Source: Lytechinus pictus (lineage: Eukaryota). From it: a stretch of DNA of 64,000 nt. Under the pieces are notes generated by a model. The model was not told the origin of the DNA. It saw only the letters and a program-made list of their open reading frames with translations, and ran no database searches. The stretch spans positions 36,396,001-36,460,000 of the forward strand of contig NC_087245.1 of NCBI RefSeq assembly GCF_037042905.1. The letters are read 5' to 3'. Below are positions 10,149 to 42,796 of this stretch, in pieces. The position numbers and the translations under genes are program-made. Within the stretch, counting starts at the first letter, position 1, and each line of letters opens with the position of its first letter.

Positions 10149-10690
10149 CCCGGGGGGGGGGGCACTCGACCAAAAAAGTGGTAGGGGTGTGCCGCGGGCG
10201 AGGCAAAAAACGGGGGCCTTGGAGCGGGCTTATTGTAAAAAGGAGGGTCCTCGGAACGGGCTTCGGAACTACAAATGTTTGTGAAACGGGGGTCCTCGGA
10301 ACGGATCTCCGTATCTCTGTGAGTGCGTATGCATCCCTATGGAACGGGCAATCGTGCATGACGCAACTATAGCGCGGCCTCCGCCGGGTGCGCTCGCGCT
10401 TAGGCGATGGTCGAAAAGCGCTATACGGCCGCTTTTCACCAAAATTGTAGCAAATCAACGCGACCGGAACGGCGTAACGAAAAATATGCGAAGCTTTGGA
10501 GCGGATTTCTTTCTTCTTTTTTCTCGATAAGAAGGAAATGCTATGCGTTGGAGCGGCTTTCTTTGTTCTTTTTCTCAATAAGACAAAAATGCTATGCCTT
10601 GGAACGGAAATTTGAGTGTAAAAATGGGGGTCCCCTCCGCGGCACATACCCACTATGCATTATATACTGAGTGCCCCCCCCCCCCCCCGG
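10149..10690. mobile_element. CCCGGGGG-terminated MITE with 8-bp TSD; its last base lies at 21396, beyond the Chapaev-like insertion
   Basis: TIR CCCGGGGGGGGGGGCACTC / GAGTGCCCCCCCC..CCGG(G). TSD AGGCCTAT at 10141-10148 and 21397-21404. Confidence 0.8.
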
Positions 10691-10781
10691 CACGGCTGTT
10701 TCACTCCCTAGGCTATGTACAAAACAACGAACGTAGAGGGCAGCAACATACGACAGTGTTGCTTTTAGGAAGGTCCACTCC

Positions 10782-12006
10782 GCTCAGATTTTGTGACCAC
10801 TTAAGCCCCACCCCTCACTCAGCGCACTTTTTTGGTAGATTGTAGAGTTTATTTTTTTTCGTTTGTTCAATTTTACTATTTTTTATGGATACTGAAAACT
10901 CCACGAAATAATGTAAATATTCTTTAATAACTGTTCATTTATTTTTTGAAAAAAGTAAGACAAAACGTAATCATGATTCTTGTAGTTTGCACATCAATAA
11001 ACATACATAGTCTGATGACATTGAATTACCTCTTTTCTGCTTAATTTCGCTGCCCCTACAAAGCTACACCAGCCAACACGAGAGCCAATACCTTGATCTT
11101 CTGGCATAGCCGCGCCGAAACTTCCGGGACACATCGGTGCGCGTACTGCGCAAATGCAATGCTGGCCGCACTAGCAGGACTGGCAGGATATCTAGACGCT
11201 ACTCGACTTAGCCAGATATGGACTTGAACGATATGGACTTAATCTGTCATTGATGTGGCACTAACTGCCAGTTGCAACGATAAATGATCAAGGTTAGGAT
11301 CCGAATTTTCCCCTACAGTGTAGATCGGAGTCTGAAAGTATAAAAGAATTAATCATTATCCATAAATCCGACCCAACTTTTTTGCAAGACATCAGGCAGA
11401 GCTTGAATACGGCCACCAGTCAAGCTCAAGCCCAGGTAAGTCCTAGTCTAAAGTTAGACCTAATTAACAGACCAAAATTATCTGGTCCAGTATCGAGCCA
11501 TATATGTTTTGACGGGCCTTGACTTGTGAACTATCAAGAGACGAAGGTATATGTCACAGCTAATTTTTTTCATTCCATAATTTCATCCTAATTTGTGCAA
11601 TTAGTATGCACAAATACCAGCCAACCGTATCCTACCTCCGCATCGACCGGCCGGCCGGGGCGCTGGCGCGGTCAGCCATGGCGCTTGCACTCAAGCGATG
11701 GCACTGTTGCTGGATTGTGTAGGCGCATTAATGTGGTGCAGCGAAACATAGATGAAGAATGTTCAACCTCACGTATATTTGTTATCATGTTGATATGCGA
11801 AAGTCATGAAATTGTTTTCACCACCACGTAATATTTTAGGAAAAATACAGAAATAAATATTGAATATTTTTATGCGTGATATTTGCTGTAAAAGTCTATC
11901 AAGTAAAAATGTTGAAAATGAGGAAATAAAAAAAAATCAACTCTACAATTTACTAAAAAAGTGCGCTGAGTGAGGGGCGGAGCTTAATAGCGGTCACAAA
12001 ATGAGC
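10782..12006. repeat. Inner long inverted repeat within the P-like element
   Basis: TTTTGTGACC...CCCCTCACTCAGCGCACTTTTTT..GTAGAGTT (10790-10850) mirrors 11938-12000. No TSD seen. Confidence 0.6.
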
Positions 12007-12336
12007 TTGACTAAATCGGGGTGAAATTAGCAGATTGGTTTATTTGATGGCATAATCAATCCTGTTTACTGAAGAATTAAAAAAACAAAAGACAATAATC
12101 TGGTAATATTTTTAATTTTGAAATGTGGTACATTTTTTGTCAATTGTTTTTATATTTTTTTATTTCTATTATTGGGATTTAGTCTTGTCATAATCTGTTA
12201 TTTTACCTCTATTTTGTTATTAATCTCTGAATGTATCGCGTCGGTTCATGGTTTCGTTGGCATGCCTACCAAATTGTGCGCGCACTTCATTTGTAAGCGC
12301 GTATCGAGTGGACCTTCCTAAAAGCAACACTGTCGT

Positions 12337-12364
12337 CAAGGCCCTATGTTTATATAGGGCCTTG
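12337..12364. mobile_element. 28-bp palindromic micro-element or excision footprint
   Basis: CAAGGCCCTAT-GTTTAT-ATAGGGCCTTG, flanked by the 8-bp direct repeat ACTGTCGT. It is absent from the opposite TIR of its host. Confidence 0.8.
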
Positions 12365-14633
12365 ACTGTCGTGTGTTGCTGCCCTCTACGTTCGTTGGTA
12401 CAAAATAAGCCCTTTCAAGTACGCGCGCACGAAATCCGCGCGCGCTGCCCAGCCAGCTGATATGCAATTTCAACTTTTACACCACTCGACGATCAACTGT
12501 AAGACTTTCATTCGACATGTGTTAGAAAGCTACATTTTTTGAGGTTTGCCTTACCTTTTAAGGTTATTCCTTTCCATCGTTATATGGTATCTCCAAAATA
12601 TCACGAGAAATCACATTCCAAATTTCGAAAATCCTTATCATTTTGAAGATATTTACAAAAATCCTGAGAGTTCCACTCTTATCAGAGACATTTTCTGTGC
12701 AATCGCGAATGAGCCTGGCCCCTGGGACTTGCAGAGAGCGTCCATTTCAGGCTCAATATCTTGAAAACCACTCGTCCGATTTTGGTGTTCTCAACGTCTC
12801 AAAAGATATAATGTCTTGTTTAATAACATATCCGATTGGCATCACAAACCCATCACTAGTTTTCTTTTAATTCGACTTTTGCTACCCAGTACTTCTAATG
12901 CACGTCAAATACCAGATTCGGTCTTTGACGTTGCCAAATTTCTTATGGAAACTTATAACACGATCATTGTTTCATTATAAGATTTGTAAGGTGTATATTT
13001 CATTAAAAAAGTAACAAATTCAAATAAAAATAAGTTTGTTAGAAGTTTTAGATATTTTTTGTTAAGTTTTGTTGGAAAAATTATTATGATATGTTGAATT
13101 TAGTTTATATAGTTTTGAATCCTTGAAATTTATAAATACAAATTGGCAATCGATCTTTCACCGCTAAATACGATTTATGATTTATTTGTAAACAAAACTA
13201 TCTGGACGTCATCGATCACACTTTGAATGGGGAAATGGGTCTAGATCTAGCGTTAGGTCCAAGACCGGACCAAACACAGCGAGACCACGTAGACAAATGT
13301 ATTTGTTTTAGAGGAAAATTTCTACATGAATTATTCCATTTCTCTTCTCATAATTAAGATTTGAGAGAAATGTTGCAACTAAAACATTCACGTTCGTCAG
13401 ACAGCATTTTGTGATCATTTTCAGACTTGATCATGGGGCCGGGAGAGCCTATTTTAGAATGGGAGATCGAGTCGACGATACCAAGTACCACGGATCATGA
13501 TCGATCATGGAAAATAATTGTTGCCCCTAGCTAGCTAGCTGTCATATCATATAAGGTGCGAGAGTATATTGGCCTATTTTTTTCATTTGCATAAGTTGCT
13601 TAAGTTGGCGGTCCTCTAAAAAAATAGGCAAACTCTTTCTCATTAAAAAATTAAAAAAATACACAACTTGTTACAGAAGCTTACGTAGGAATATTTAAGG
13701 GGGGGGGGGGGTTCAAGCTGAATGAAATGTTGATGAACCCCCCCCAAAAAAAAAATTGAAAAAAAAAAATAAAAAAGGGTCTTTCAAAAAAATTTAGTTA
13801 GAGCGGTCTTTTTTTTTCTATCTCGGCGCTTCCCTCTTGAAAACGTATAGATGATTATAATCTTATATCTGCCTCTTTTATTTGTAATATTTCATGATTT
13901 TATGCTTTTCCATCATGCTAATCATTTGTAAATATTGTGATTGTTATGATTTACTTCAATAACTTAAATGTAAAAAAAATTAGTGTTTTTTTATTGTGGG
14001 GGGGGGGGGGGGGTGGGCCATCTTACTTTTGAGGAGTCCCCCCCCCCCTTCTGGAAAGTGGTGTTAGGTGCCGCGGAATAGTTATGAAAGTAGGGGCTGA
14101 CCATGCAATAATCATATTTACATGGTAATTTTTATGTTTTTGTACATGGTTTTAGAAAGCCCCCACAGCTCCCCCCCCCTTTAGTATTAATGTCACTGAT
14201 TATTTAAAATAACTTTACTTGTTAAATTTTTTAATGGAAACTATGTTTTTTCTAATTGTGGAGGTGAAATATTATCTCCCCCCCCCCCCACCGTCATAAA
14301 TACCCAAGCCGATCCAACCCCACAATATCTCAGAGGCAGGTCCAGTATTTTTAAAATCAAGAGGGTGCAAAGAGCAAAACTGAAAATTGAGTGGGTGCAG
14401 ATGACAATTTTCTATGCAATTTCCTAAAAGAGGCAGGTCCAGTATTTTTAAAACAGGCCTATAGTTATATTAGTAGCATGTTCAATTGAGATTTTTTTCA
14501 AAATGAGGGGGGGGGGGAGGGATGTGTCCCTTCCAACCCTGCCTTTGACTCTGGTTTTTCAGTTTCATCAATACTGCCTTTGTCCCGTTTCATTAATTGC
14601 TTGTTGTCAGTGATCAAGGATTTAATATACCTG

Positions 14634-14787
14634 GGCCCCATTGCATAAAGAGTTACCATTATGATTTACCATGCAAATACAACTTGTATGGAGTCCTTGA
14701 TCTTGATTAGCTTTGATTAGTGTTAACATGGTAGTTACCATTTGATAACAAGGTTACCATAATTCCTAACTTTTATGCAATGGGGCA
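14634..14787. mobile_element. GGCCCC-type small MITE with CTG TSD; similar elements at 27971-28240, 39802-39981 and 55074-55287
   Basis: GGCCCCATTGCATAAA / TTTATGCAATGGGGCA flanked by CTG. Confidence 0.65.
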
Positions 14788-16132
14788 CTGGAGAAGGCAA
14801 AATTGAGGAAGGGGGTGGCGTACTAATGACAATGGTCTTTCATTTGGATAAAGATGCCTAATCAAGGAGTCATTCTCAAAATATAGCGTGGAAGGGCAGC
14901 ATACAAGTACATGTGCCTCACCCTTGTGCCTTTATCCTTGATTATACAACAGAATGTTAGATGTCTCGAGTAGTCATTGCAGGTCATCCCTTGCTTATAA
15001 AAAAGAGTAAGATTATATAAACGAATTTTATTCAAAATTTACAATAAAATTGCAGTGAATTACTACATATTTTAGGAAGTTTAGATACAGATAGAGATTC
15101 ATTCACATTCATCTATTTATTGAACCACATTTGAAAATTTGCCCTCAAGTGACATTACATGCACAAAGATATATATATATAAATAAACATCAAGACAATA
15201 ATTTTACTTGAATGAAACCTTCCAATAAAATATTTTAATAAGCATGTATAACAACCGATATGGAAATTAATTATGGACTAACGTGAGAAATATGGGATAA
15301 ATAGCCTAAAACTTAATTCATGATAGCCCATGATTAGAATAATTTATATGTGTTTGGAAAAAATTGTGTTTAAGACATAATCATTTACCATTACCTGATA
15401 TGGATACTCCTCATTTTATGTGTTTGGATTAGATTCCAGGAGGTAAAATTCAATCTCAACATGTCTGTAGGGTCAATGAAACCCTCGTAACTTTATAAAA
15501 GCTATAAAATATGGATGAAAGGAGAAGGGATTGAACTCCTAAATGAAAACCATGGTCACTTGTCAGGTATGCATTATATACCCCCTCAAAAAAAAAAGAA
15601 TGAATATAAATATGAAATAATCAGTCATTTTAAAACATATTTGCAAATTTCATGTGATCTACCGGTACCACTCACACAGCCACAAAAATTGGTTATTTAT
15701 CATTGTATGCATATCAATTACAGTGTACATTTAATTTTAACAATGTTAAAAAAAAACTGAAAAATGATTTTCACCTTCACATGCCCGGCAAATTCAGTAC
15801 CCCGTGGAAATTTTTTTTAATGAAATGATACAAGACTTAAAAATACTATAAATATAAATTACAAATCAGATAAGTGACTACTGGTAATTGATTAGATTGG
15901 ATATGACATGCACATGTAGCTCATTCCTTTATATTTTCAAAATGGTTGAATTTGTAAAAATAATCTTAATCTCGTTCTTTGCATTTTAACTGACTAGAAA
16001 TGTAAACCATACAGTCATAATTCATATTATGACACAATATAATACATTGCCATTATAATATATATTTTAGTTGTTTTTAACCTACTATTTAACATACATG
16101 CTATAACTTCTTAATCAATACACTTCAAATCG

Positions 16133-16413
16133 AACAAGAGTGTTGCTAAGGCGGGCACATAATATGCCCGTCTGTAACATGGAAAATGGAGCTATTGGTC
16201 AAGCAAGATAAGTGGAAGATGGTGACTTCACCTTTGACCTTCTGACCACAAAATCAATAGGCTTCCTGGGATCCATGCTAGTATCGTGCACCAAATTATA
16301 TGAGCCTAGATTAAGTTAAACTTAAGTTCTCGCGTTTACAAGGAAAAGTTAACGGACGAACGGACACCGAGCGTGATACCATAATACGTCCCGTCAAGAC
16401 GGGCGTATAAAAA
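16133..16413 (+). mobile_element. Helentron-associated non-autonomous element (pearl/HINE-like)
   Basis: 5' AACAAGAG; subterminal inverted repeat ATATGCCCGTC (16162-16172) vs GACGGGCGTAT (16398-16408); CCTTTGACCT core; GGAC repeats; 3' hairpin CCCGTC-AA-GACGGG followed by TATAAAAA. Confidence 0.7.
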
Positions 16414-17340
16414 GTTATGCCTGTAGTCTTTGAATTAAAGTTTGAAGTGAAATATATCTAAATTATTGGAACTAAATTTTTTTTTTAATTTGAATATTAT
16501 ATTGGCTGACATTTTCCTACTCGTCTAGTATAATTAGACATGTCATGAATAATAACTGTAGAGAGACATTCCAGAAGTCTGTTTTTGATTGATAATTGAA
16601 TTTAATATTATACTTTTTCCATTATCCACCCATTTCCATACCGAACGTCTGAAATGCGACCATATTGAATTGCATAATAATGCAGGCAAGACTGCCAGAG
16701 ACGTCTTACTTGTATTGAAATACATTCATGTTAATACCCTCCTTCTAAATAAATTTGTCAGCTTGCATTCAGAATTTGATCAATTCTAACTGCATATCAA
16801 TTAAACAAATATAGCGCAGGCAACTTTTAAAATTGTTTAAAATGCTTTGACACATCTCTTCTTCCAGATGAATAGTGCTGAACTAATGTAGGATATTTTC
16901 GGCTACTCACATCAAAGTCTGCAAGAACTTTTTTTCCTGTATCCTATGGTTGCACACTTTAAAATTTCCCTGTAGCATGTACCCTTCGAGCAAATATTCT
17001 GCCCATGGATGTTGGTACATATACTTGCACATGTTTCTCAAAACTCTTATTACTGACATCGTTTAATAATTATTGATAAAAAATAATGAATTTGTCAGAT
17101 TTGATGGAGAAATATTAAATTTGAAAAAAAAATAATTATAAGCAAAAGATAGGGAATCCAATAAACCACTTTTCCTGACTAAGTAATTTTCAGTTGATTA
17201 TTAACATTATGCCTTTGACCCATTATCCTAATGAAAGTACATGTAGTATTACCCAGGGATCAGATGTAGTAAGTGTGAACATAATTGATGCAGAAATAAA
17301 GGAATGTGACCAAGTTGAACAAAAACTTGACCTTTTGACC

Positions 17341-17721
17341 CCAACTTCCTTTTGTAGTGAGTCCCTCAGTAAATACTGAAGACATAATGAATGAAAAGTT
17401 TCGCCATGTCCAATTTGTAGCAAGAACTTTTTCCTAGATGATGTTACAAGTAGTCCCTGTTTTTAACTATATGTGAACTTGAGGTTTACTGTGTTTGTGG
17501 CAAAACTGGCCTCCTAAAAACATTCACAAGACATGTTAAATTAAATAAAGGCCAGTAGAAGTAGAACGTCAAGAAGCTCTTGAAAAAGCTGGAATCACAC
17601 TTGAAGCAGCTATACATTCAATTGCACATATTCCAAGATTCGTGGAAAGAACCTCCAGTTTCATTGTTTGGAAGAAGCGTCAGGAAGATGGCCACGCCGA
17701 AATCAACAAGATACCTGGAAC
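17341..17721 (+). pseudogene. Decayed transposase N-terminal exon: RING-finger C-terminal half plus zinc finger
   Basis: With stops and frameshifts: SFCSESLSKY*RHNE*KVSPCPICSKNFFLDDVTSSP / CELEVYCVCGKTGLLKTFTRHV / VERQEALEKAGITLE...KIPGT, ending at a GTAAGT donor (17722). Confidence 0.6.
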
Positions 17722-18276
17722 AGTAAGTAACGCAAATTCTTAGCACTGCGAATTAAATGAGAGAATTATCTTAATTCAAAGCTCATCACTTGTACAAATG
17801 CAATTTACTACTCGTTTATTTCTTTGAAATATAGATAAAAAGTGAATTTTATTTTTAAGAATGGTTTACAAGTATAGATGTTGATCTACTTATAGTTGGA
17901 AAAAAAAATATATCCCCTTCCTTATGATATCCAAATCACTTTGATTTCTCATTTTCAAACATTTTCTTCCATAATGACTATTTTTTACATTTTAAATAAT
18001 AGTAACTGTGATAGCAATTGACACAATATTCAGAAAGTAATATGTTTCACCCCTTTTACTTTCCTTTCCTTTTTTTATCCCCTTTTCTTTGTGGTGAAAA
18101 TTTTGGGGAGCCATGACCCCAATGTCTACATGCAAGTGAGTGGGGGTATTTTATTTCAACCTGTATAGTGGCAGATGAATTTAAAAGCACCAAAATTGAA
18201 TTGCGGGGGAAAAAATCTTCTAGTGAATGGCGATCAAAATATGAAATTAAAATTGTTATGTATATATGTTTTACAG

Positions 18277-18386
18277 CTTCTTCTTGTTAGTCATTCAAAG
18301 AGATTTACATAACGAGATGCAGCAAAGACGTTGGCCATGATGAATGATGGGCACCTTAATTGGTCACAGTACAGACAGATGAATAG
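18277..18386 (+). pseudogene. Decayed transposase exon with a RAG1/Transib-like LA...L..SQY..M.R motif
   Basis: TTTTACAG acceptor; DAAKTLAMMNDGHLNWSQYRQMNR at 18316-18386; GTAAAT donor. Confidence 0.6.
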
Positions 18387-19168
18387 GTAAATTTCACTGA
18401 GAATTAATGTCGTACTGACCTCACTATCTTTATTGTCTCCGTTCTTCTTATCCATCCATGGATAACCACTGAAGACCTGGCTCAAGATCTCTGGCAGTGC
18501 ATGGCTCCTTGGGATGGGGGGGGGGGGGGCTGACCAATGGGAATTGCATCGTCTGATCTTCACACAGTCAAAGGTAGTGTCTCCATCACTGCTGTAGCCC
18601 CACTTGAACCATGGACAGTCGACAGTGATTCGCTAGGTCCATAGCAGAGTCACAGACTGGAGGTGGTTAGACAACAGAGATAGAAAGAAAAGTTAGCACC
18701 AAAAAAATTGCTTTATTTTGAATAGTTTTAATGATCATAAAGAACATGAAATCAATAAATTCATCTCAGGGACATGGCCACCAAGGATTATTCATGATCA
18801 TTCGCACCTTTAAATGACAATAGATACTATAATCTGCCACCAGATTCATGATTCAATTCAGCAAAAGTGATAATAATATATACAATCATAAATCTTTGCT
18901 GGAGACAGAATAAAGCATTGGATTTGTACTAAAACAAGTTTTTGAGCAAATTTTGATGTGATATGCACTTGCATAATTGTATTATTTTTTTAAAACTGTG
19001 CCAATTGTCACAAATGTGGCCTTAAATTTTGCATTACCAGTAGAAATAGAAAAAATAGAAATATCTTTAAAAATGTTGAGGCCAGCCTTTTTTTAATAGC
19101 TAAAGCTATTAGTTGGCAGAAATCATCAAAACCTACCCATATGTTCATGTTCCATCATCTTTCCACAG

Positions 19169-19340
19169 GAATGGATTTCTCACAACTCACGATGGGGCAA
19201 TTCCTGAAGAAGAGGTGTGGATTAAGTTTGGGGGAGATCATGGTGGACAGGTGGAGGCTCATTTAAGTTGGTGATACAGAGGTCTGCAATGTGGAAAACA
19301 CAATGCCTCACAGAAATCCTTGTTTGTTGGATGCTATGAA
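19169..19340 (+). pseudogene. Decayed transposase exon containing the putative first catalytic Asp
   Basis: TTCCACAG acceptor; NGFLTTHDGAIPEEEVWIKFGGDHGG/GSFKLVIQ/VCNVEN/NASQKSLFVGCYE. An 8-nt insertion at 19248-19255 and further frameshifts disrupt it. Confidence 0.7.
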
Positions 19341-20740
19341 GGTTCCTTTCATCTCATTGCTTCAGAAAATGACTCATCCCATCGCCAAGCAACTGACAAA
19401 TGAAGAAGATTAAATGTAGAAGTTAGGATATTGGAGATGTAAATTTCAAATTATTCTATTTTGTAACGTCACAGATGTGTAGATTATTACTGAAAATTGT
19501 GTGATATAATTCTTTTTTATAATTTTATATATAAAAAGTAAAATAGCTGGCAGTTGTTTTAGATGTTTCTTTTATCTGATGTAATATAGGCATGATTTAG
19601 GTTTAACATCTGATGTAACATACATATTTTTTCTCTTCAATCTTTGAGACTAGTGGAACTAGTTGAAAGGATACATAAAATAAAAAACCTAATAATGTCA
19701 TTATGTGAGAAGTGAGATTTTTTAGATTATGTTGGTGACATTAGTCAAATATGACTTATCACCACTCAAATCAACAAAAGAAGAAAAAGCTACAGTACCA
19801 GTCACAATTCTTTGACTACCTGTTTCACCAGAGAACTATCATGATGATAAAAAAGACGAACAGAATTTATGCTAATCTTCCCTGTACAAAACGTGCACAC
19901 AGAAGACATGTTATAATAAAGACGAAAGGATCTTTGAAAGATGAAAGTCATCTTATGATGAAATTTAGTAAACAAGAAATGCCACCAAAGAAGCAAGTGC
20001 AGAGATTACCTATCATATAATTATGTATGAACTATAATAATAAATGTATATTTTGGTCTGATATAATAGAAAATTAGAATTTACCTGACCTATGTGTGCT
20101 ACTGTGCATAGTACGATACAGTAAATTGTTTTGAATAAGTGTAGCAATGCATGGTATTGATCATTGATTCATTGAAACTAAAAGATTGAGAAAAACATAA
20201 AGAAATTTAAAAAAAACTTCCACGCACAAAATCCTTCATTTCACTTTCAGACCAAATCCCCTGGCCCCACCATATAGTCTCTATGCAGTATATGCAGTGC
20301 AGCATATTTTTAATGCAACCCCCCCCCCCCCCCAATGTATCTGAAAAAACCTCAAACAGAATCTACCCCACCCTAAAAAATTAATTAAAAAATCTAGAAT
20401 CTATAGGGCCTAGTACTAATACATGTACTATTAGCACTGCTGAGTGCTGGCCTTGAATCTAGTCACTAGTGCGGTGTAGTCAATGACAATGTAGCCCTAT
20501 CAGATTCACAGATCCAAGTAACATTGTAAATTTGTATGCAAAAAAACACTGAAAGTGTTGTCATGATTGTGAAAATGAGAGTCTAGACCTAGCTCTACAG
20601 ACCGTGAAATACCCTTTTTCACGAGTCAAAGTTAGCACTCAGCTCAGCAGCATGCAGCAGGCGCAGCAAAATCATTACATGTAGTTGTACATACAGCGAA
20701 TGCACTCTCAGTCTCGCTCAGCTTAGCTCACGAAGCGCAG

Positions 20741-20785
20741 TAACCCAGAGAGCTCCAGCCCGCGTAGCTGGAGCTCTCTGGGTTA
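20741..20785. mobile_element. 45-bp hairpin micro-element with 9-bp TSD
   Basis: TAACCCAGAGAGCTCCAGC-CCGCGTA-GCTGGAGCTCTCTGGGTTA flanked by GAAGCGCAG (20732-20740, 20786-20794). Confidence 0.75.
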
Positions 20786-22727
20786 GAAGCGCAGTTGAGC
20801 TGCTGTGTACATGAGCGGTGTCTGACCACACAGCCAGGCGGCCCGCGACCCGGCCCTGCCCGGCTTCACCCGGGGTAGCGGCGCGCACATCCTATACAAA
20901 CAGAAAGTGCTGTATCGAAAAATCAACCTAAAATAAATTCTACTGATGGGTTCAACGAAAAATTGCGCCAGATGAATCTTAAGTGCTTTGAAAACAAAAC
21001 TACAATAAATACGAAATGCTGACAAACCGGACTTTTTACATTTTGGACTTTAAAAAGTTCCATAATTAGGGCCAGATTCGCGAGTTTACATGGGATTATG
21101 CAAACGCAAACATCATGACAAAATGGAGAAAAACAGAAAACGTATAATCACATTGCCATACTTACGACTTTAAACATGGAAAAAAATGTTTCCTCCACGG
21201 AATTCTTGCGAAATAAATAAACTGTTGGGGATAGACAGAGAGAGTTGGTCGTGTCAGCGCCAGATGCCACAACAATCGCCAAGGATTTTTTAATCGCCCT
21301 TATAGACATCGCAGCACAACAACGTTAAATGCATATGCGCACTTGGGCCGCAAGGGGGCGCTAAGCTTATTTTCACTGTGAAACAGCCGTGCCGGGAGGC
21401 CTATATCCTGACCGCGCGCGCACACACGCATAAAATATTAACATGACCAGCAAAATGTGATGGAGCGTAGCGACCGAGCGAGAAGATATAGGCTATATAT
21501 AAAGTTCATTCAAGAGGCCAATGGCCGCACGCAGGATATTTTTTTTCCTCCGGGGAGCGGGGGGTACAAAAAAATTGACTGAACTCGAGAAACGAAGGAA
21601 CCAAGCGACCGAGCTTGTTATGGGGAACATTTTTTAAAGTGAAATTGTAGGATTTCATGCACACTCTTGGTTTGGTGAAAATATTCAGTATGAAAAAAGT
21701 CCCCCCCCCCCCGCTGTGTACGGCCATGAAGAGGGCAACTACGGTAGGCTTATTTTAATATAAGATTTTTGTTGACACGTTTATAGGCCTACAAAATGAG
21801 ATTTGTGTGGAGCGTCTGTGGACGTCATGGCAAATGGGGCCTCTTTTCAAAATGGAAATCTTAGGTTGTATGACAGATTTTGGCATATTGAAATATCATC
21901 AGATAAGGCCTATTTTTTGTGGGGTAGGGAAAACAGTGGTGGCTCTAGGGGGAGTTTTGGGATTTCTCTAAAATCGCTCAAGCCTCCCCAAAATTTTCGA
22001 CCACAAAGAAAAAAAATAAGGCGGCATTCCATTAGTATACTGTATTCAAGTTCTCTAAAATTTAAGCTTTTATATTTCAAAATCGTTTTTTTTCCGCTCG
22101 GTCGCCACGCACTCCCTCGCAAAACAAAATAACATCTATAAATGCAGACTATAATGTGCGAGTATAACAAGCCAATGATCCCCTGCATATAAAAGAGTGC
22201 CTATCATTTTTTTTATTACTTACTATTTCATCAAACACGAATACCAATACGCAAAATTCTTTGTCTATTTTTGTCAAAAGCGCTCTGAAATTTTGTTCTC
22301 CTTTAGGATAGCCTATATATGTTGTTGTTTTTTCGGAGGCTAAAGTTTTCAAAACATTTAGCAGTTTAGAGTCAGTGACCATCCATGTTTCGGAAGGTGG
22401 GGGAGTGAATAAAATATATATTTAAAAAAAAAAAAAAATCGGTGCACTTTGCGCGCCAAATTCTAACACAGAACTTTGCACATGATGAGCACCGAAAACC
22501 TTACAATTTATATGATTAAAAGTATTTTAATGTCAAGTAGAATGGTTTTATAGTGCTTTCTGGGGTTTCTGACCTCTATCGGAGACTTGGCTTCTGAAGG
22601 TTTGAAACAGAGTCAATCGGGAAATTTATAGAATATTCGAACATCGCCATCTTGAGTTGAATTTCGGTAATCTTTTGGAAAATATCTTCTCACGAACTGT
22701 TGTCCATTTCATCTAATAAGGCTTCAC

Positions 22728-22752
22728 CATAGAGATGTATACTATCTCTATG
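22728..22752. mobile_element. 25-bp CATAGA-type micro-element or P-like excision footprint
   Basis: CATAGAGAT-GTATACT-ATCTCTATG flanked by the 8-bp direct repeat GGCTTCAC. Confidence 0.75.
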
Positions 22753-23949
22753 GGCTTCACACACTATGTTTTTAAAGTCCGTATTTCATTTCGGGAAATC
22801 TAAAAATCATTTTTATTTTGTTCCTTTAAAAATATATTATTTTTTCTTTTATCATATTGACAACAAATCACCATTTGTCTTGGTGAATCAATTTTTCATA
22901 TATTGTACTACTTTATGCTGATCAGGACACCCTCAAGAACAAATAAATAAATAAAAGATAAAGAAATAATAATTCTTATCAATTTTTAAAGATAAGGAAT
23001 TGAAATCCATCCTTTCTGGAGTCAGTGCCCTGGGAACGATTTATGTTACAAGGGGTGCTGATGTGAATTTGAAAAGTGAAAAAAGGGTTTCAGTAAAAAA
23101 AATGTAGGTCATTCCGGTTTTATTGATCCATTTTGCCCCATTTTGCCACCTATATACCAGAATTCCAGGGGGTGCTGCCTATGGAGAGTAACACACACAC
23201 AGCACCCCCAGTACGCCCGCTTCCCAAGGACATGTCTGGAGAGGAAATAAGAACAATGATAAAACAGTAAGGTTTCGAATGAACTTAGGATTAAGGTAAT
23301 GGGAAACATTCATTGATTTAAAAATGCTTATTGTGATACCCAAAACCGATAGAAATGATGGCGTACATTATTGTATTCTTAATTCTTGTTTGATTTTTTA
23401 CTGGAAATAAAATCAAGTTTGAATTCAATTTAGCGGTGTGAATTTGCCCGGTGAATTTGTAGTTCAATAATAATATGGGTAGCCATTTTCCATCTCAGGA
23501 CTTGAAACATGACTTGTATGACTAGAATTCTTTAAGTTCTCAGTCCGCTGAAAATGTGGCCAGTCCAAGAATCACGAAAGTATAGAAAAGCGGAACATTG
23601 TAGGTAATTTGGAGTGAAGTGGAGAAGAGTCAACGCTTGATCCCTTGGGGTGTTAGACTCTCAATGCAACCCCCATCATCGGGTAATTTACAAGGTTGTT
23701 TAATGGACCTGCACCCGGTGTGGAATTTAAAAGCAACAATTCCTTTACTCTTCTCCAGAACCCGCCCAACAATGATGATGGGTAATTGCAATTCTGAAAA
23801 GAAGCGATTTTATCAAAATCTTTGATTACTGTTGGGGGAAAAAAAAGTAGAAAGAGAGAGCCGAGTTAGCAATACTCCACCAACCCTTCTTCCTTTTATG
23901 TACAGAATGGTTTGTATCGCCTAAGCATACGAGCTGTTAAACGGAGAGA

Positions 23950-24370
23950 AGGGTCGGCGAGCCTTTACGAACGCACTAAATGTCAATCAGTGTAGGTTTA
24001 CACGATTCTATCACTAAGGAACATGCCGACTTCTGTCACCGTGCGGCAGTCACCATCACTCATTGGTCAAATGAACCGTGACGTATCACAAGGCGGGCGT
24101 TGATTGGTCCATCGGGCAAGACTCCCACACGATTAGCTGTCACAGGTGCATGTCAATACGCGTGACACTTTGCCTGACACCGTCCATTCAATGGCAGGGG
24201 CGGGGTTGTCTGCGTCTGTTTATTTACCGAATAGCCCTCTGTGATCCGCTGCCGAAAAGGTGCCAGACTGCTCTTACAAAGACCCGGCTTTGGCCCTTTT
24301 GACGAATTCAACTCCCCTTTTCGCATAAAGACACCGTGATCTACATTATCTTACACCAAAGGAGTAATCT
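23950..24370. promoter_or_regulatory. Candidate cis-regulatory module
   Basis: Non-repetitive GC-richer block with ATTGG x2 (24062, 24103), a GC box GGGGCGGGG (24197), TGACGT (24079) and four TGACA/TGTCA sites in 24138-24179. Confidence 0.4.
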
Positions 24371-24707
24371 CTTTCGGGTCTATCGCATTTTTTTGTGGCA
24401 AACAACGATTACTAAAAACCAGGGTAATTGTCATCGTTTTAAGCTCATCGTGTGGGTTTTTTTAAATGGATTTCTATAAGAGCAGTTCTAATAGAACTGA
24501 TTATTTTTTCTCGTGTAAGATAATGGGCTATTATCAAGGCGTGGTGAATCTAATAACTAATCATTATCAGTGGATTAACAAAATAACCCTGATATTTGCC
24601 GACATTCATCTTTAGATGAGAAGGGTGGTGGTGGTGGGGGGGGGGGCATGCCTGGGGGTGAATTGTTTTTTCCTCCACTGGGTGGACAAGCGTTGAATAA
24701 GAACCAG

Positions 24708-25358
24708 TTAAAGGAGAATTTCACCTGACAATAAGTTTGTTATCACAAAAGTCGAAAAAATTAGAGAGCGATTAAGGTTTGAAAATAATCCATCAGAGAT
24801 TATGAAAATTACAAATTTTCAGTCATTATCTTGTGTTACGTTATAATCAAGCAAGCATCTCCCCCATAATATCCTGCAACATAAATTCCATCGATACCAT
24901 AACCATTCTTTTTTAATGGAACTTGGTAAATGAAAAAAAAATCCTGTAGAGGGATATGTAAAATGACATATCCGATATGCCACAATCACTTTCAATATTT
25001 TTTTTTACAAAATTACATTTTGGGGAATTAATTTCACTGGAGTTGCTCGTCTATGACGTCACAAAAGAAAAAAATTTAAAGATTCATAACCCATTATAAT
25101 TTTACCATTTTATTATCTTAATTCTGTATGTCGAGGACCCCACTGGAAATAAGCTTTCGAGCTTTCGTGGGTCATCCTGTGCAAGCCTGTTGTTTTAATG
25201 CTACTGTATATATGTTATGGTGACTTGCCAAATAAAATCAATCAATCAATCAATCATTTCATTCTAAGACGGGTTTTCATCAAACCTCCGTCAATAAAAT
25301 ATTTTTCTATTTCTGCTGTTATCAAAATCAACTTCTTGCCAGGGTGAACTTCCCCTTT
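24708..25358. mobile_element. Kolobok/T2-type MITE with an inserted LINE tail; family copies at ~28385-28819 and ~48695-49043
   Basis: TTAA-AGGAGAATTTCACC ... GGGTGAACTTCCCCTTT, with a shared TATGACGTCACAAA internal motif. Confidence 0.65.
25100..25256 (+). mobile_element. CR1/L2-group LINE 3' UTR fragment
   Basis: GGACCCCACTGGAAATAAGCTTT...GTGGGTCATCC stem-loop, then AATAAA and an (ATCA)n tail. Confidence 0.55.
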
Positions 25359-26199
25359 GGTTACAATACGGTTTAAGACTCTTCTTTTTGTTGAGGGAAT
25401 ATGGGCTGGGTGTGCGAGTGATTGCCAGGGTTTGTAATATTGCTTCAATCTTACACCCAAAAGCATTCCACTGTCATCGATGAAAGTCATACCCACGATT
25501 ATACATGCGACCACACTGATGATACTAGAGTTTTAATAAACTGTAAGTATTTTATATGAAATGGTGCACAGCATTGATGTTAATGAGTGATGGGCGCAGC
25601 AAATATGACGATTGGATAAAAAGAAATGAAATATCATATACATATAACATTTATTCCAGAGGAAATCAATTTATTCTCTATTTCAAATAATGTAGAACAA
25701 ACCAAGTAGCAAGTATATAGCAACTGCCACAAACACCAAGCAATATTAAGTCAAATCGTCAATGAACGCAAATCAATATATCATATCTGAAAGAGTGACG
25801 TCATATAATGACATCACGGTAAAAGCCGTCACCTCCAAACTGCTACTACTACTACTAATAATAATTATCATAATAATAACTAGCATTTGTGTAATGTCAA
25901 GGAATTTCCGAAAATGATATTAATAACAATGATAAAAATCATGATGATGAAGATGATGTTATAATAATAGCAACAGTAAAAAAAATATAGAATATAATAG
26001 TAATAATGATAATAACAACAACAACAACAACAACAAATACAATAGTTTCTCACTCTCTCTCTCTCACCCACACATACACACTCTCTCTCTCCCTCTCTCT
26101 TACCGTTTTTACCCCTTGCATAATTATGTCCCCCCCCCCCCTTAGAGGCATAGTTATAATGGACCTTCTGCATGGTTATTTGCAATATCACGTTGATCT

Positions 26200-26960
26200 C
26201 TATATAATAAGACGAGGCGGGTGGGAAAGCCGGGCGCGGCAGGCTAAGAAACGGGGGCCCGGGGCACAGAGGTAGAAATCCATTCGTTTCTGTACTGCGG
26301 CACGGCCTTTGAAATCCATTGGCCAAGCCCTTAATGTAAATAATAAACAATATATGGATTGTGTCGCAACCTCTTTCGGTGAAGGGATGGGTGCTGTAAT
26401 ACTTTTCTCCTTGCTCGGCAGTTATTTGCTAAATCCGACTTACCCCTTGCTTTTAAGCCGCGCTTCCCCTTGCATATGTTTTCTTACTCGCGCCTTAATT
26501 GACGCGCATGCGCTCTAAACCACTTTTCCTGTTCTTCAAGAAGTAATAAAACATCTTAGCCTAGTTTCGGCAAAATTTCAAAAAACCAGGGCTTGACTTA
26601 CTCAGAGGAGTGCCAGATAAGTAATTTCGTAATTCCTCCACAGTTCATGTCGGCAAAATGAAAAGAAAATTTATTACTGGACTGATGGGATATTCTCCAA
26701 TCTGTGTGTGTCGGCATGCACGAAAGAGACCCTATGGTCGTATCAAGGGGCCGTATCTACCAGATTTTCTAATATTATTTTCCGGAATACTTTGTGCCTT
26801 AGTTTTTCCTAATGAATTCGATAGGTTTGCCGAGCAAGACCTCTGTCTCCTTCGAATACATCGTCTTCTCTTTCAATTAAAATATAGGAAATTCTGGGAT
26901 AATTATGTGTACCGAAACTCAGGACATTGATTAAGCAAGGGCGTCTGCCCCTTTGATGTT
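26200..26960. promoter_or_regulatory. Candidate Wnt/Notch-responsive enhancer
   Basis: GTGGGAA (26221, Su(H)/CSL-type); TCF-type CCTTTGAA (26306) and CCTTTGATG (26950); Fox-like TAAACA. Confidence 0.35.
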
Positions 26961-27254
26961 AAAGTAGTGTAAAGGGTGGAAAGGATGACAATGAATAACA
27001 GAAAATAAAATGGAAGAAAGAGGAACTGTAGGTCGCCCCCCCCCCCCCATCAAAATACCCTGGCCTCGTCCTACACTGTGTACGACGACATCACAGATCA
27101 AACGTCCTTTAACACCAGTCATGGCAAATTACTATCCAACTGTGGACCTGTACAACTAAGTCCATGGTCCAACTATGGCAAAACAAAAATAATAAAACAA
27201 TATCTTGGTATATTCAAACGATAATCTGGTTTGCTTTGTCCATTTTTAATGGTT

Positions 27255-27490
27255 GAGCGCATGGAGGCTCAGTGGTAGAGCGTCCGCCTCATGAACGGAA
27301 GGTCGTGGGTTCGATCCCTGGCAGAATCATACCAAATACTTATTTTAAAAAATGGGACCTTCTGCCTTCTTGCTAGGCGCTCAGCATTTAGATTGGGGAA
27401 GGGTAATAATATTATGTTATGTATAGGGCCCGCTGGAAGTGCAGAAGGGCTACCCTGGGTAAATAAAACATTATTATTACTATCATTATT
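27255..27490 (+). mobile_element. tRNA-derived SINE
   Basis: A box GGCTCAGTGGTAGAGC, B box GGTTCGATCCC, central body, then AATAAA and an (ATT)n tail. Confidence 0.8.
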
Positions 27491-30400
27491 ATAACAAAAC
27501 AACATTGGTTGTATTGACCGATTCATTTAAAAACAAAAGCCAGTTTTGGAAACGATCTGAAAATGAATGCAAACATGCAGAATCCTATAACATGACCACC
27601 GAAGTGTTTGTATGTATGAATAAAATATAAATATTTGCCAAAATGAACATGGTATTTCAGTGAGATGTCGGGTCTTTTCCCAAACAATAACAATAGACTG
27701 CCCCGTATAATTATGCTTATCAAATTGTGCTAGTGAGTGTTTTTTCGATGGATAGACTGACACTATGAGAATAATAAATAACATGAAATTAATTATTTGA
27801 TTTTAATGGGATGATTTTAATGATTTTACGGGGCAAGGTTCCTTTACATGATACGGTGACAATCAATCTGGATTTTAAAAACTTTCTCATAACATACTTA
27901 TGATTGTGATGACTATTTTACTATGTTTTTATACACCAGGATCAAGATGCAAAACACTAATTGTATCTTTGGGCCTTGTCTTATAAAGAGTTGCGATCGA
28001 TCCGATCAATCGTAACTATGGACGGCCAGCAACGTCAACATCTATTATGCATGTTTGTTCAAAATATTTTCTAGCTTTGCTGTATATTCATGCATTCATT
28101 GTTTTCTTGAAAATTCGCTGTGCTTCTCTTTGATTACGAAGAACATTGTGCAAATTTCCTGTAGAAAAAATTATGACACTGATGGATTTCCATAGTTACG
28201 ATTGATTGGATCAATCGTAACTCTTTGTAAGACGGGGTCCTGGTCTTGTGAACCTGTTTAAAATATGTGTGAATAAATAAATAAATATATAACACACTAT
28301 CATTGATATCCACACACTATGTATATGTTTTCATATTCTTCTCAGAATGCCGACTCTTGAAATTTGATCACGTGACTTTTGGCCTAAGGAGGAGTTCACC
28401 CTGATGAAATGTTCGTTGTAATGATATCAGATAAATCATCATAATATAGGTTAAAGGTTTGATGAAAATTTATCAAGGATTTAAAAATCTATTAGAATTT
28501 TATTTTTTGTATTCATTACGTCATATGTGAGAAGCTTCCTTATAACCGTGAAGTAAAAAAAAATCAATAAAAATATGAAAATGTTTTTATTGTACCTTCA
28601 GTATATCAACATGGACCTAAAAGGTCTATGATAATCAATATACAAATCATTTCACATGGGGCAGCTGCTCGTATATGACGTCACAAATTAAAATATAAAA
28701 CGAATAACTTTCTAATCTTTGATGGATTTTCATCAAACCTTCCCCAATAATATCTTTAATCATTTTTTTTCCTGATATTTTACAACAAAACTTTTCGTCG
28801 GGGTGAACGTCTCATTTAGTTCAAACGAATTATAGACAGGTCATATCACTGATGCCGCAGTAAAGATTCGTGTGGGGTTTATTCTTTCGTCCTTATTTTA
28901 AAGCGAGGTGTAAAAACAATATTAACTTTGAATAGCCGTGCATTTAAACAGATGTGGGTCAACTAAAATAAATGGACTGTCAAGTAAAAAAAAAAAAAAA
29001 AAAAAAAAACCGTGAAAAGGTTACACCGAAACAGGCCTAAATCGTATGCGGTATAGGCCTCTGTATTTTTCAAACACAAATAATGAAAATTATAAAAGGT
29101 TCGTCATCCGTGGTGCCGTGATTAATGATTATCAACACGACAAGTATGCCCCCTAACAATAGTCTATTAGTGGACTACGTAAATCCAAACTAGTTATTAA
29201 GGCCGCACAAAGAATGCAAAGAGATATAGGGCTTGCCGTTTCTCTTATGAGAAGCCATTATAAGAAGGAAAAGCATGTGCTTCTATATCTCGCCTTTGGT
29301 TGGCGGCAAAGATCAAAAGGAGATGAGCTGACTTGCAGATTAGTCGGCTAATTAGATTTCTTAAGAGGCCTGGGTCATGTCGTAATCACGAGGCAAGAAA
29401 AGAGCTTTTCTCTTGCATTGATTGCAAGAGCAACATCAATAGAGCGTAAGGCGGTGATCTTAAGACTCTATGAATAGGATCGTGTTGGAGAAAAGATAGC
29501 ATTTTGAAAGTGATAGCATGCAGGATTTTAATAGGTTTTACACCGCGGATCAAAAGAAGCAGAATTAGACAAAAATGGTGATAGGCGGAGTGCCTGATCA
29601 GTTCAAAGGGGAATATCTACGCCCATTTTAGCATTTATATTAGCTGGCTAGTTTATGTTGACAGGATTTAAATCGGCTTTCTTTTCGATGTGCCTCATTG
29701 AGGCCATAAAGCTCTTATTTCAGAGGGGGGGGGGGGGGGGGAGTGTTCAAAACGTGTATAGGGAAGAAAAGTGGTGCCCGGCGATAATTGCATCATGAAC
29801 GTCGGGCACGGGTAGAATTTTAAAGAAATTACATATTTACGTGAAGGAATGCGAGCGTCTCGGAGAGAGGAATGATAATAGAGGAATTTACAAAATTGTA
29901 TGTTTCATTGATTAACAAAATTTGGAAATGCCGTTGTGTTTAATTATCGTCAAACGCTTCTTCGTATTAAATATAAAAAAAGAATGAGAGTCTTAAAGCC
30001 GCCCTTTTGGGCAAAATGTATACCTTTAATACAAACAAACACGCACACCACAACACAGAAGAAACTCGAGGGAAACGCTAATATTTTCTGGTTATCATGG
30101 TTATAACAGTCTTGGTTTTTGTATTTTTATGTTTTGTTGTATTTTCCCCCCATATATTATATCATTTTAGCGATCAATTCGCGCCCAAGATCACAGTCAT
30201 GCTAGTGGCAAAGAGTAGATATGTGATCGTGATGATGACTGAAATGCACTTGATGAAATAGGAGAGTCGGTTAAACCTGTCAGGGAGGGTAGATTTTCTC
30301 GTCCGAAACGCGGAAAGGTAAATGGGCGAAATGAATGGAGGTCTGTAGCCGACACATTTCGGGAGGGTGGAGAAATTTAGTAATGAACAAGTAGGTGTGA

Positions 30401-39325: not shown

Positions 39326-41590
39326 GTATGCTGCTTTTTCTTTTCTTTTGCTTATCATTAAAATAGGACCAATAATCAAATTTGTTAAAAAAAATTGCCG
39401 AGATTACATTTTTTTACAATTTTTTGTTCGACGGCTACATATATAGAACGCACGTTTAAACTTGTCAAATGTCATCGTTCCAAATCCATGTATATTTCAA
39501 ATTCAATATATCGGGATTGATACGATCATGAATGAAAAGCATGTTTCTTTTGTGTATTTTGCAATGAGAACTCTGCACTCGTCTTGTCTCGCCCCTATCC
39601 GAACTTCCCAAGTAGTATGACCCTCGAGGCCCCCTATATTAGGCTCAAGTGTTATTATCAATATTTGTTTGACTCGTGACATTCTTGCAAAGATATTGTT
39701 TTTATTGAATGTTTACTTACGATATTGGAGAACATAGACACGTTGCACGCCTTTAGGTTTGGTGTGATATAATTTGCCATTGCATGCATCTTCTGACTGG
39801 TGGGTGTTTCATAAAGCTGCTCGTAAGTTAAGAGCGACTTTAAGATCGACTGGTAATCCTTTCTTCTGGTAAATGATATTCACCATGAAATGTTCATTGG
39901 TGATTATTTAGTACGTAAGAAAGGATCACCTGTCGTTCATAAAGTCGCTCTTAACTTAAGAACATCGTTATGAAACGGCCCTTTGGTATAACAAACTATT
40001 TCCCGCGACTTCGAAATCAAATGGTCCATCAACAAACGGACCAAAAAATGAAATAGCTCACAACATGCTACAGAACTTACTGAAGTATAGTTAGGCCTAT
40101 TATAAAAGTACAGGCTTAGTAAAACTATATGATTGCAAAGTTGTAAATAATGGACACTCCTTCCATTATAAAGGTATTGAAATATTGGCCTCATACCTGT
40201 ATATTGTTCTATTCAAATTTGTATTTTGAAAAAGTTTCAAATGATATGCTACTGTAAGGAAATAGGCTTAAAAATTTTGTGCCTTTTCAGTATAACCATG
40301 ACAACGGTATGTGTATGAAATTTTGTGTCAAACATTGATCGTAAAACGGTCTGTATTCAATCTTGACAACACTAAACACATTTGGTTACATGTAGGTATA
40401 TCGCATCATAAAAGTATAATGGTTGTAAAATTGATTTGTAAAAAAAACACATTAGTTTGGGTTGTGTTTTTATCACAAAACATGAAATCAGATCGGTGCA
40501 TGAATCACTTTATCTCGATATCTCGAAGACGATAAAACAAAATCAATTATTTTCATGTTGCTCTAAAATACGCCTGCTTGTTAAACCAAATCATCTTTTT
40601 ACTCAACCAACATGCATGTTCGCCATTTTACCCAATATTGGGTAAACCTTTTTTTTTAGAGTGTAGTGGCTTCAAATGCTACATGTATATTGCAATTGAA
40701 TATGAGTTTAGTATTCAATTGAGTTGATGTTTCAGTTTATATGGAGAATGCAATACAAATTGTATTTTAAGTAGGAGGGGCAAGTTAACACCGTGCATGG
40801 TAGTAGAAATACATGATTTAACTCTTCAAGATTTCAATAAAAATCTTTACCAGTTGCTCTTGCATGCCTGATGGATATTCTGATTGCCAACTTTAACCAT
40901 TCCTTGGATTACAGTTTCATTTTTTTTTATCAAATCTAAAGTTATATAACAATTCTGATCTTTTGGTTATTGCAAAACACGAATATCTAACATATACACA
41001 GGCCTATTTTCTATGTACAATTAGGCTTAGAATTATATTGAGTGGGGTAAAAAAATGTATTTCATGTATGACATTGGGCCTACTACACATTATGCACTCA
41101 CTGTTTGTAAAAAAAAAAAACACCAATGCAGTGTAGGCCGTAATACTTTTAAAGACTTTTCCCACGAAACATGCATTTGATTTTTTATATATATACGTTT
41201 ATGGGGACCTGTATGTTCCCCTCTTACCAATTTGGAATGTATGGAAATACGTAGAGGAATTTTACTCGGATCACATTCAAAGGATTCGATTTATTAGCTC
41301 CATACAAGTAATGAATTTAATTTATGTTTGATCTTTTTGGTAGGAAAATTTTGAATATGCATTTATAGTGCGTAGAATTAACTTGATTCGCACGTCCTTC
41401 GTTAATTGGCCTGTCCCAAACACACTTTCACATCCTATATTGATTAAGCCATTTCCCATCAAATACTTTCGAGGATGAATTATGTTTTAACAAGCAAATG
41501 TTCTACAAATCCAACTCGAAATGATTTCATGAATTACTGATTGGAAATATATTAAATATTTCTTTTTGTTTCATTTGTTTGATTCGACAG

Positions 41591-42796
41591 CACTCAGAAA
41601 TCAAAGCTGGCAAGGCTGGTCAACCAAGCCCCCTTGCGATGTTAGCTGCAACTTGTCGAAAAATAGGTGGACCTTTGGCAGTACACGAACCAACCAGACA
41701 ACCAACGATACTTACACCACATCCCACGAAGCAAGATCATAAATTGCTCAAATCGCCAATGCCAGCAACCGCAGCGGTGCACCCGACCTCGCACGCGGGA
41801 AGAAGATACGAGCTTCCCCCGACACCTCCCGCCGAAGCTACAGTGCCTGTCCGCTGTGATTGTAGCGGTGGTGTCATGCACCACTTGCCTCTTCCAACTC
41901 ATCCACCGTGCTTGAAACATCTCTGGCCAGCCGCCGTTCCTCAAACGTCAGACATTGCAGCGATATCGTCGCCGTTTTATCCCGGACACCACCACCATCC
42001 AGCTTTTCATCATCATGTCCACCACCACTCGTGTCACACGATACCAGGCATTCACCACCCCGTCCCGCATCCATACTCACCGTGCAACGCAGCACCAAGC
42101 CCACCGACCACGCCGTCATTTCATCACCATCATCATCATGGACTATCCCCCGTCTCTCCACCAACTATCACCATCCCAAGTCCTTCCTTCAGCGTCCCGA
42201 GTCCCGTTCGTTTAACCCCTCCCGGTGAAGACACCCAGTGGTGGAGCCTGACACCACGCTCAAACCAACAACATTACACACCATCACTCGGCACGCATCC
42301 CGCCCAAACCCTTGGGCTCTATCCTCACCATCTCGATGCCCGGCCCGTTAGCTCCATCACCAAGCTCGCCGCACGCCGTTGCAGACGATGCCGATGCCCG
42401 AACTGTCTCAACCCGTCCAGTTCGAACGAGCCCGCCAAAAAGCGACAACATATTTGTCATATTCCAGGTTGTGGTAAAGTGTACGGGAAGACCTCGCATC
42501 TCAAAGCTCATCTTCGTTGGCACACAGGCGAACGCCCATTCGTGTGTAATTGGCTCTTCTGCGGGAAATCGTTCACGAGATCAGACGAGCTCCAGCGGCA
42601 TCTTCGCACACACACGGGCGAGAAGAGATTCGTATGTCCCGAATGCGGCAAGCGATTTATGAGAAGCGACCACCTTAGCAAGCATTCGAAAACCCATGCT
42701 GCTCGAAAAGAAACAACGATAAACCAAGAAGACCAACACGAAAACGACACCGAGAGTGACAGTGAAGATGAAATTGTTGATGTTACTTCAGAATAA
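41591..42796 (+). CDS. Sp5: Sp5/buttonhead-class C2H2 zinc-finger transcription factor, exon 2
   Basis: Polypyrimidine tract plus CAG acceptor at 41590; Sp box [22 protein letters not shown] and WWS motifs; Btd box [11 protein letters not shown]; three Sp-type zinc fingers ([45 protein letters not shown]); TAA at 42794-42796. Confidence 0.93.

Follow-up and report, generated by a model that had tools for sequence, protein, structure and literature searches.

A stretch of 64,000 nucleotides of Lytechinus pictus DNA (contig NC_087245.1 of assembly GCF_037042905.1, positions 36,396,001 to 36,460,000 of the forward strand), referred to here as the window, carries at 10691-21391 what is almost certainly a decayed, non-autonomous Chapaev transposon, a DDE element related to RAG1 and Transib. 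A block of sequence present at both of its ends lies about one helical turn deeper at the 5' end than at the 3' end. This asymmetry, which recalls the V(D)J recombination signal sequences (RSSs) and their 12/23 rule, is followed here into other copies and other lineages. The repeat family of the window element is called family A. Chapaev transposons were reportedly described by Kapitonov and Jurka in 2007. The Chapaev identity proposed in a preliminary description of the window is borne out by CAC...GTG termini, found on the window copy and on other copies, by 4-bp target-site duplications (TSDs), by remnants of the Chapa and RING domains and by a profile match of the exon encoding the first catalytic aspartate (Table 1). 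The homologues that have names are uncharacterized proteins of sea urchins, starfish and anemones in which DUF1280 is found.

The family A gene includes a Chapa exon in inverted orientation, a remnant of RING and the first-aspartate exon. Comparison with one sister copy (F, 71-81% identical) indicates that some 9 kb carrying the other catalytic exons has been lost past about position 19419; the F alignment jumps from 20240 to 29416. The later DDE motifs, present in F, are deleted from family A. Because most catalytic exons are gone, family A is classed as non-autonomous, and because its many copies have distinct TSDs despite this loss, it was mobilized in trans. No intact partner with family A ends was found. 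Every family A copy examined is decayed and contains no long open reading frame; no RAG2-like gene was seen in these copies, although no profile search for RAG2 was made.

The ends, spacers, nested element and CACAGTG lie in the window sequence where the preliminary description placed them, as does the perfect 14-bp terminal inverted repeat (TIR), and the element is flanked by CCGG TSDs. Once the nested element and one copy of its 8-bp TSD are removed, the left end reads as a 7-mer at 10691, 23 nt (10698-10720) and a 9-mer, and the right end as a 7-mer, 11 nt and the identical 9-mer. The exact 14-mer core of the TIR has 39 matches in the genome, compared with none for a reversed control. Ten other full copies were retrieved (9.1-11.3 kb, 89-99% identical to the window copy), each with its own 4-bp TSD. 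In all 15 other left ends the spacer is 24 nt, in one case after removal of that copy's own nested insertion. A genome-wide search for the end pattern gave 33 matches (3 in the reversed control), with a spacer of 24 nt in 13, 11 nt in 15 and 23 or 12 nt in none; five were unrelated. Contigs from two sequencing runs belonging to different studies span 10708 to 12398 with the A-containing, 24-nt form. The 23-nt spacer is a 1-nt deletion private to the window copy, and because the other left ends, the pattern search and the run contigs all give 24 nt, family A is a 24/11 family with an offset of 13. The 23/11 ends first proposed thus hold for the window copy and not for its family, and the offset of 12 becomes 13. 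At both family A ends the first 44-48 nt are nearly invariant, so that conservation reaches past the TIR core, while the right end varies freely over the 70 nt that follow.

Table 1. Features of the Chapaev element in the window
Feature	Position	Strand	Evidence
Left TSD copy, CCGG, 4 bp	10687..10690		Window sequence; own distinct 4-bp TSD in 10/10 other full copies
Perfect 14-bp TIR core, left (5', long) end	10691..10704	+	Window sequence and genome-wide 14-mer search
Spacer past left core; one A missing after 10708, present in all other copies	10705..10720	+	Copy comparison
Nested non-coding element, 1,673 bp, perfect 24-bp TIR, 8-bp TSD (10717-10724 / 12398-12405)	10725..12397		Window sequence
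Second block of left end (shared 9-mer); begins at position 32 in intact copies	12402..12410	+	Window sequence, pattern search
Remnant of Chapa zinc-finger exon, in the opposite orientation to the other exons	16831..17133	-	74-75% nucleotide match, reversed, to Chapa-coding region of sister copy F
Decayed RING remnant (weak match), then zinc-finger/linker exon	17227..17800	+	Frames of the sister copy as tblastn queries, E 0.023 and 2e-27
Putative remnant of helices aligning with RAG1 dimerization and DNA-binding region	18316..18396	+	Weak match (6.7 bits) to profile positions 210-236; same profile stretch weakly aligned to RAG1
Frameshifted exon, first catalytic Asp (KFGGDHGG motif)	19158..19340	+	Chapaev profile match, E 1e-13
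Second block of right end (same 9-mer), begins at position 19	21365..21373	-	Window sequence, pattern search
CACAGTG within right end, centre of interrupted palindrome; judged incidental	21374..21380	-	Sequence
Perfect 14-bp TIR core, right (3', short) end	21378..21391	-	Window sequence and genome-wide 14-mer search
Right TSD copy, CCGG, 4 bp	21392..21395		Window sequence

Second blocks offset by 10-13 nt are found in five of the seven Chapaev-class lineages with both ends defined, C and N being counted as one lineage and L201 and L202 as another. The blocks are family-specific, 9-34 nt long and without any sequence common across lineages. In all five lineages the longer end is 5' of the transposase, where orientation is known. 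The transposases share 22-33% identity and lie far apart on a midpoint-rooted tree (no outgroup), in which asymmetric and symmetric families are intermixed and family A, which gave only 31 columns, is represented by sister copy F. The best off-register blocks lie at offset 13 in C (p 0.005, 0.03), at 12 in its relative N and at 10 in L184, L193, L201 and L202 (all p 0.002, the floor).

Families C and D are further Chapaev families of the host genome, and TSDs are 4 bp in families A, B, C and N rather than the 5 bp of Transib and RAG-like transposons. In family C the core is 12 bp long and the inner block of 23 nt begins at position 30 of the left end and at 17 of the right; the TSD matches in one copy and not in the other. 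Family N has the same core, and the spacer sequence differs between the two families. All ten end pairs fetched from 294 matches (nine N, one C) have 4-bp TSDs. N-type ends number 215, compared with none in the control, and the first 100 listed comprise 48 short, 48 long and four long ends with one extra nucleotide. Three of these four represent one duplicated insertion, in which the spacer sequence is replaced and its length kept within 1 nt.

A metagenome scan contributed 20 related loci. When ends were scored over all 6,797 CAC pairs with no offset favoured, five loci rose above background (scores 32, 29, 23, 22 and 22, against at most 20), with offsets of 10 in L184, L201, L193 and L202 and -1 in L185. 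L201 (455-4822) and L202 combine a highly divergent Chapaev-profile transposase that has no visible Chapa domain with CACTAT ends, a 5-bp TSD and the offset of 10, and may connect Chapaev with ends of the Transib type. For the L201 protein no relatives were found among 8000 scored, so its class rests on a 158-bit Chapaev-profile match and a very long branch. Two scans of a viral collection gave no relatives, and prokaryote genomes gave two partial contigs with no end pair.

Control elements were drawn from 34 inverted-repeat candidates in 683 kb of host DNA, of which 17 remained after those with 3-bp duplications or CACG starts were removed. Six of the 17 have a significant block, each within 2 nt of register, and none has a significant one-turn offset; the best offsets of 11, 13 and -12 in three controls have p values of 0.85, 0.54 and 0.13. 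Indels in control TIRs are 1-2 nt. The null probability that five of seven lineages fall within +10 to +13 is 3.5e-5, for a range picked after the data had been seen. A recurrent one-turn end asymmetry in Chapaev is very probably real. The RSS likeness of the window copy is partly an accident of its private deletion and of an arbitrary 7-mer boundary, yet there is a real pattern behind it: the asymmetry suggested for a relative outside RAG is heritable and recurs in unrelated Chapaev lineages, though it is not new as such, being in print for Transib (PMC1131882, PMC9435367).

The relationship to RAG1 that had been claimed is supported by the predicted model of P0022, a full-length relative rather than the window protein (predicted local distance difference test, pLDDT, 89), which Foldseek matches to RAG1 at E 7.6e-16. 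In this model residues 351-984 align with RAG1 391-1007 (Z 26.7, 528 aligned) at a root-mean-square deviation (rmsd) of 7.7, which falls to 3.3 when just the core is aligned (Z 26.4, 457 aligned). The full model also aligns loosely over RAG1 391-459, the region of the nonamer-binding domain (NBD) type, and Chapaev proteins have helices at this position. The NBD-like region alone, modelled from a 7-sequence alignment (pLDDT 71, predicted template modelling score 0.35), has no sequence match to RAG1 and no Foldseek match at E 0.001. RAG1 chains appear for it at a Foldseek E of about 6 and a wide structure search reaches at best Z 3.7, so that homology is neither shown nor excluded. A PDB search with the single sequence P0002 gave no matches.

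The best explanation of the asymmetric ends, which we hold with moderate confidence, is that bipartite long and short ends are read by a dimer of the Chapaev transposase. Each end consists of a terminal CAC core and an inner block, about one helical turn deeper at the 5' end than at the 3' end, as the sequences of five of seven lineages show. By analogy with RAG, the catalytic core of the dimer would bind and cut at the terminal cores, and a second, flexibly linked DNA-binding region at the place of the RAG1 NBD would grip both inner blocks. The difference of 10-13 nt would keep both blocks on roughly the same helical face, allowing one long and one short end to fit a single complex. The asymmetry is labile, as in Transib, with some families symmetric. 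Reading of the inner block by the transposase is itself rather probable. Descent of the asymmetry from an ancestor shared with Transib and RAG is a close call that falls slightly short of even, and a strict rule of long/short pairing in Chapaev is doubtful. Equally doubtful is the broadest version, in which one-turn asymmetry, NBD-like reading and pairing enforced without RAG2 go back to the ancestor that Chapaev shares with Transib and RAG, and Chapaev transposases, with Chapa and RING domains of RAG1 type as well, are living single-protein models of the 12/23 rule.

Several observations weigh against bipartite reading by the transposase. The offsets cover 10-13 nt, or about 100 degrees of twist. 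Two of the seven lineages have no offset: L185 is symmetric, and family B, apparently intact and the youngest of the families described here, has an imperfect TIR that is in register with no offset block. The family A 9-mer, taken by itself, is the best match out of register but falls short of significance (p 0.08-0.09 by shuffling, with all offsets considered), and the spacer sequence, expected to vary, is invariant in 14 copies. The pairing of long with short ends among copies reflects clonal descent and proves no rule. A GG-x-P-like motif occurs in only part of 73 Chapaev sequences (GGQP in 9, GGRP in 3, none in 35). Fifteen of the 20 metagenome loci yielded no ends when all CAC pairs were scored, and only L201 of the remaining five has a TSD, of 5 bp. 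Those ends are less secure because the flanks of L184, L185 and L193 are unmatched and L202 ends at a contig edge; scores of 22-25 are rare but present among about 167,000 host pairs, the set in which no ends were found for sister copies F and E or for the left side of D, the best pairs (up to 25) being at background. The control set is small, comes from one genome and includes chance pairs. Finally, the outermost 70 nt of the ends of B, C, N, L185 and L193 contain YY1-like cores, often near position 36. Because several inner blocks hold such a core, a host factor could be their reader.

Convergence on the same geometry is the strongest alternative, though an unlikely one. A functional one-turn offset would arise repeatedly in dimeric transposases with a second DNA-binding module and have little bearing on 12/23 ancestry. 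The lack of a block sequence common to the lineages, the spread of offsets over 10-13 and the mixing of symmetric and asymmetric families on the tree all fit this account, as do a polarity opposite to that of 12/23-like Transibs, in which the 5' end is short (PMC1131882), and the listing in the literature of piggyBac-type elements with divergent ends. It has to contend with a sister group in which Transib subgroup I is entirely asymmetric (PMC9435367) and PflRAGL-A has a 10-bp end asymmetry (PMC10629977), which makes shared ancestry parsimonious, and with the lack of any such offset in the 17 controls.

A neutral or host-driven origin, in which an indel arose in a longer imperfect TIR of each family or a YY1-like host factor binds the inner blocks while the transposase reads the terminal core only, is improbable. 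Family A ends can be aligned as one TIR with a 13-nt gap, the YY1-like cores listed above would supply the host sites, and invertebrate RAG-like enzymes are predicted to depend on the terminal 15-17 bp (PMC7204232). Neutral indels would not be expected to cluster at +10 to +13 with one polarity, however, and those of control TIRs reach just 1-2 nt; the pattern used finds no YY1-like core in families A and L201. A literal RSS homologue with 7-mer, 23/12-type spacer, nonamer and strict 12/23 rule is very improbable and, on the sequences, largely refuted: with an arbitrary 7-mer boundary 24 and 11 fall within RSS tolerance (23+/-1, 12+/-1) and the 9-mer is A-rich, but 23 occurs in no copy except that of the window and 12 in none, the 7-mer shares only CAC with the RSS heptamer, and the 9-mer, shared by both window-copy ends as described, is not a conserved RSS-like nonamer, being private to family A with an invariant spacer. 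The exact CACAGTG in the right-end spacer is likewise present as described, but it lies 11 nt inside the terminus, adjoins the 9-mer with nothing in between and does not occur in the left end, and from its placement it is judged incidental.

Additional observations concern family A copies and their surroundings. A candidate symmetric long/long derivative (L008/L009) was rejected; the shared context runs past the CAC, which identifies an inverted duplication within another repeat. The window copy itself is placed in the final bases of a miniature element with poly-G/poly-C ends (10149-10690 and 21392-21403, apparent 6-bp duplication), and further copies also lie within poly-C/G tracts (L007, L010/L011). 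A member of this miniature poly-G element (L008:1501-1920) contains, as part of an inverted duplication, a 24-nt stretch that matches the left end of family A exactly. The 4-bp Chapaev TSDs, which show cut-and-paste mobility, are mildly GC-rich (53% GC in 22 TSDs, compared with 37% in the window). Three copies have a different element inserted among the outermost 35 nt of one end (window 10717-10724, with an 8-bp duplication; G000:C21:10068855 and G000:C20:3344051, with apparent TA and about 5-bp duplications), which suggests either that the ends are hot spots for insertion or that copies hit in this way become immobilized and persist. The 8-bp TSD of the nested element in the window would suit hAT or P types. 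A small hairpin insertion of 38 nt (12336-12372) lies within its right TIR region, and sequencing runs show the hairpin-free form. About 20 kb from the Chapaev element, an open frame at 41525-42796 (+) encodes an Sp/KLF-type zinc-finger transcription factor, presumably Sp5-like by its motifs.

Family B, another Chapaev family of the host genome, has four copies about 99% identical, with open exons, intact Chapa and RING domains and weak RAG1_imp_bd matches; its 9.1-kb element with near-symmetric ends (L079:6241 to L080:5366) is a candidate for recent activity. Family N is a young non-autonomous Chapaev of about 2.9 kb, with about 100 copies genome-wide (L164-L183) and 4-bp TSDs, one of them apparently inserted 94 bp inside another (G000:C4:10350969-10356782). 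Three long open frames in tandem with a Chapa-like domain (G000:C17:10328400-10335100) are possibly domesticated copies.

These results suggest a greater age and a wider distribution for the long/short ends underlying the 12/23 rule than has been described so far. Current accounts derive RSS asymmetry from Transib or RAGL-A ends (PMC8355894, with RAG-like elements added by PMC10629977 and PMC9435367), and PMC8355894 treats Transib as the only other known 12/23 case. Chapaev lies outside the Transib/RAG group, yet shares N-terminal domains with RAG1. Should Chapaev ends follow this design, the asymmetry either predates the Transib/RAG split or is a general solution for dimeric transposases. Natural symmetric and asymmetric Chapaev families together offer a direct test of whether one protein imposes end pairing without RAG2. 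One-turn asymmetry is already published for Transib and RAG-like transposons; for its occurrence in Chapaev, no report was found in a literature search that covered papers other than Repbase Reports (including that of 2007) and supplements. The name Chapaev is absent from the main text of PMC9435367, PMC10629977, PMC8289069, PMC8355894, PMC7204232 and PMC9885083, and the available parts of PMC4411706, PMC4079192, PMC3014272, bioRxiv 10.64898/2026.01.24.700457, 10.64898/2026.08.26.747230 and 10.1101/100735 treat Chapaev and are silent on end asymmetry.

Compared with the Chapaev transposons described in PMC4079192 and PMC4411706, family A has the same CAC...GTG termini, 4-bp TSD, Chapa zinc finger and RING, and a DDE core with a DUF1280 match in relatives. 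It differs in being non-autonomous with an inverted Chapa exon, and its one-turn bipartite ends are unmentioned in the available parts of those papers. Several Transib families have RSS12-like 5' and RSS23-like 3' ends (PMC1131882 Fig. 4C). Transib and Chapaev have in common CAC termini, an inner block offset by about one turn, symmetric as well as asymmetric families and GC-rich targets. Transib differs in its 5-bp TSD, the lack of Chapa and RING, a conserved A-rich nonamer and a short 5' end, which in Chapaev is the long one.

RAG-like transposons are also built from a core, a spacer and a family-specific second block, and their transposase fold is related to the Chapaev model, but they encode RAG2-like partners and have 5-bp TSDs. 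AanRAGL has 4/13 spacers (PMC9435367), and ProtoRAG, with 27/31 ends, prefers its own asymmetric pair (PMC8289069). V(D)J RSSs share with Chapaev ends the invariant CAC and the one-turn length difference, and the Chapaev model aligns with the same stretch of RAG1 (391-1007), the protein whose NBD dimer pivots to accommodate 12 and 23 (PMC10629977). RSSs have an offset of 11, compared with 13 in family A, and a universal heptamer at the cut site, of which family A ends retain only CAC there. Their nonamer is conserved alongside a freely variable spacer under an enforced 12/23 rule, where Chapaev has a block that varies by family and family A an invariant spacer.

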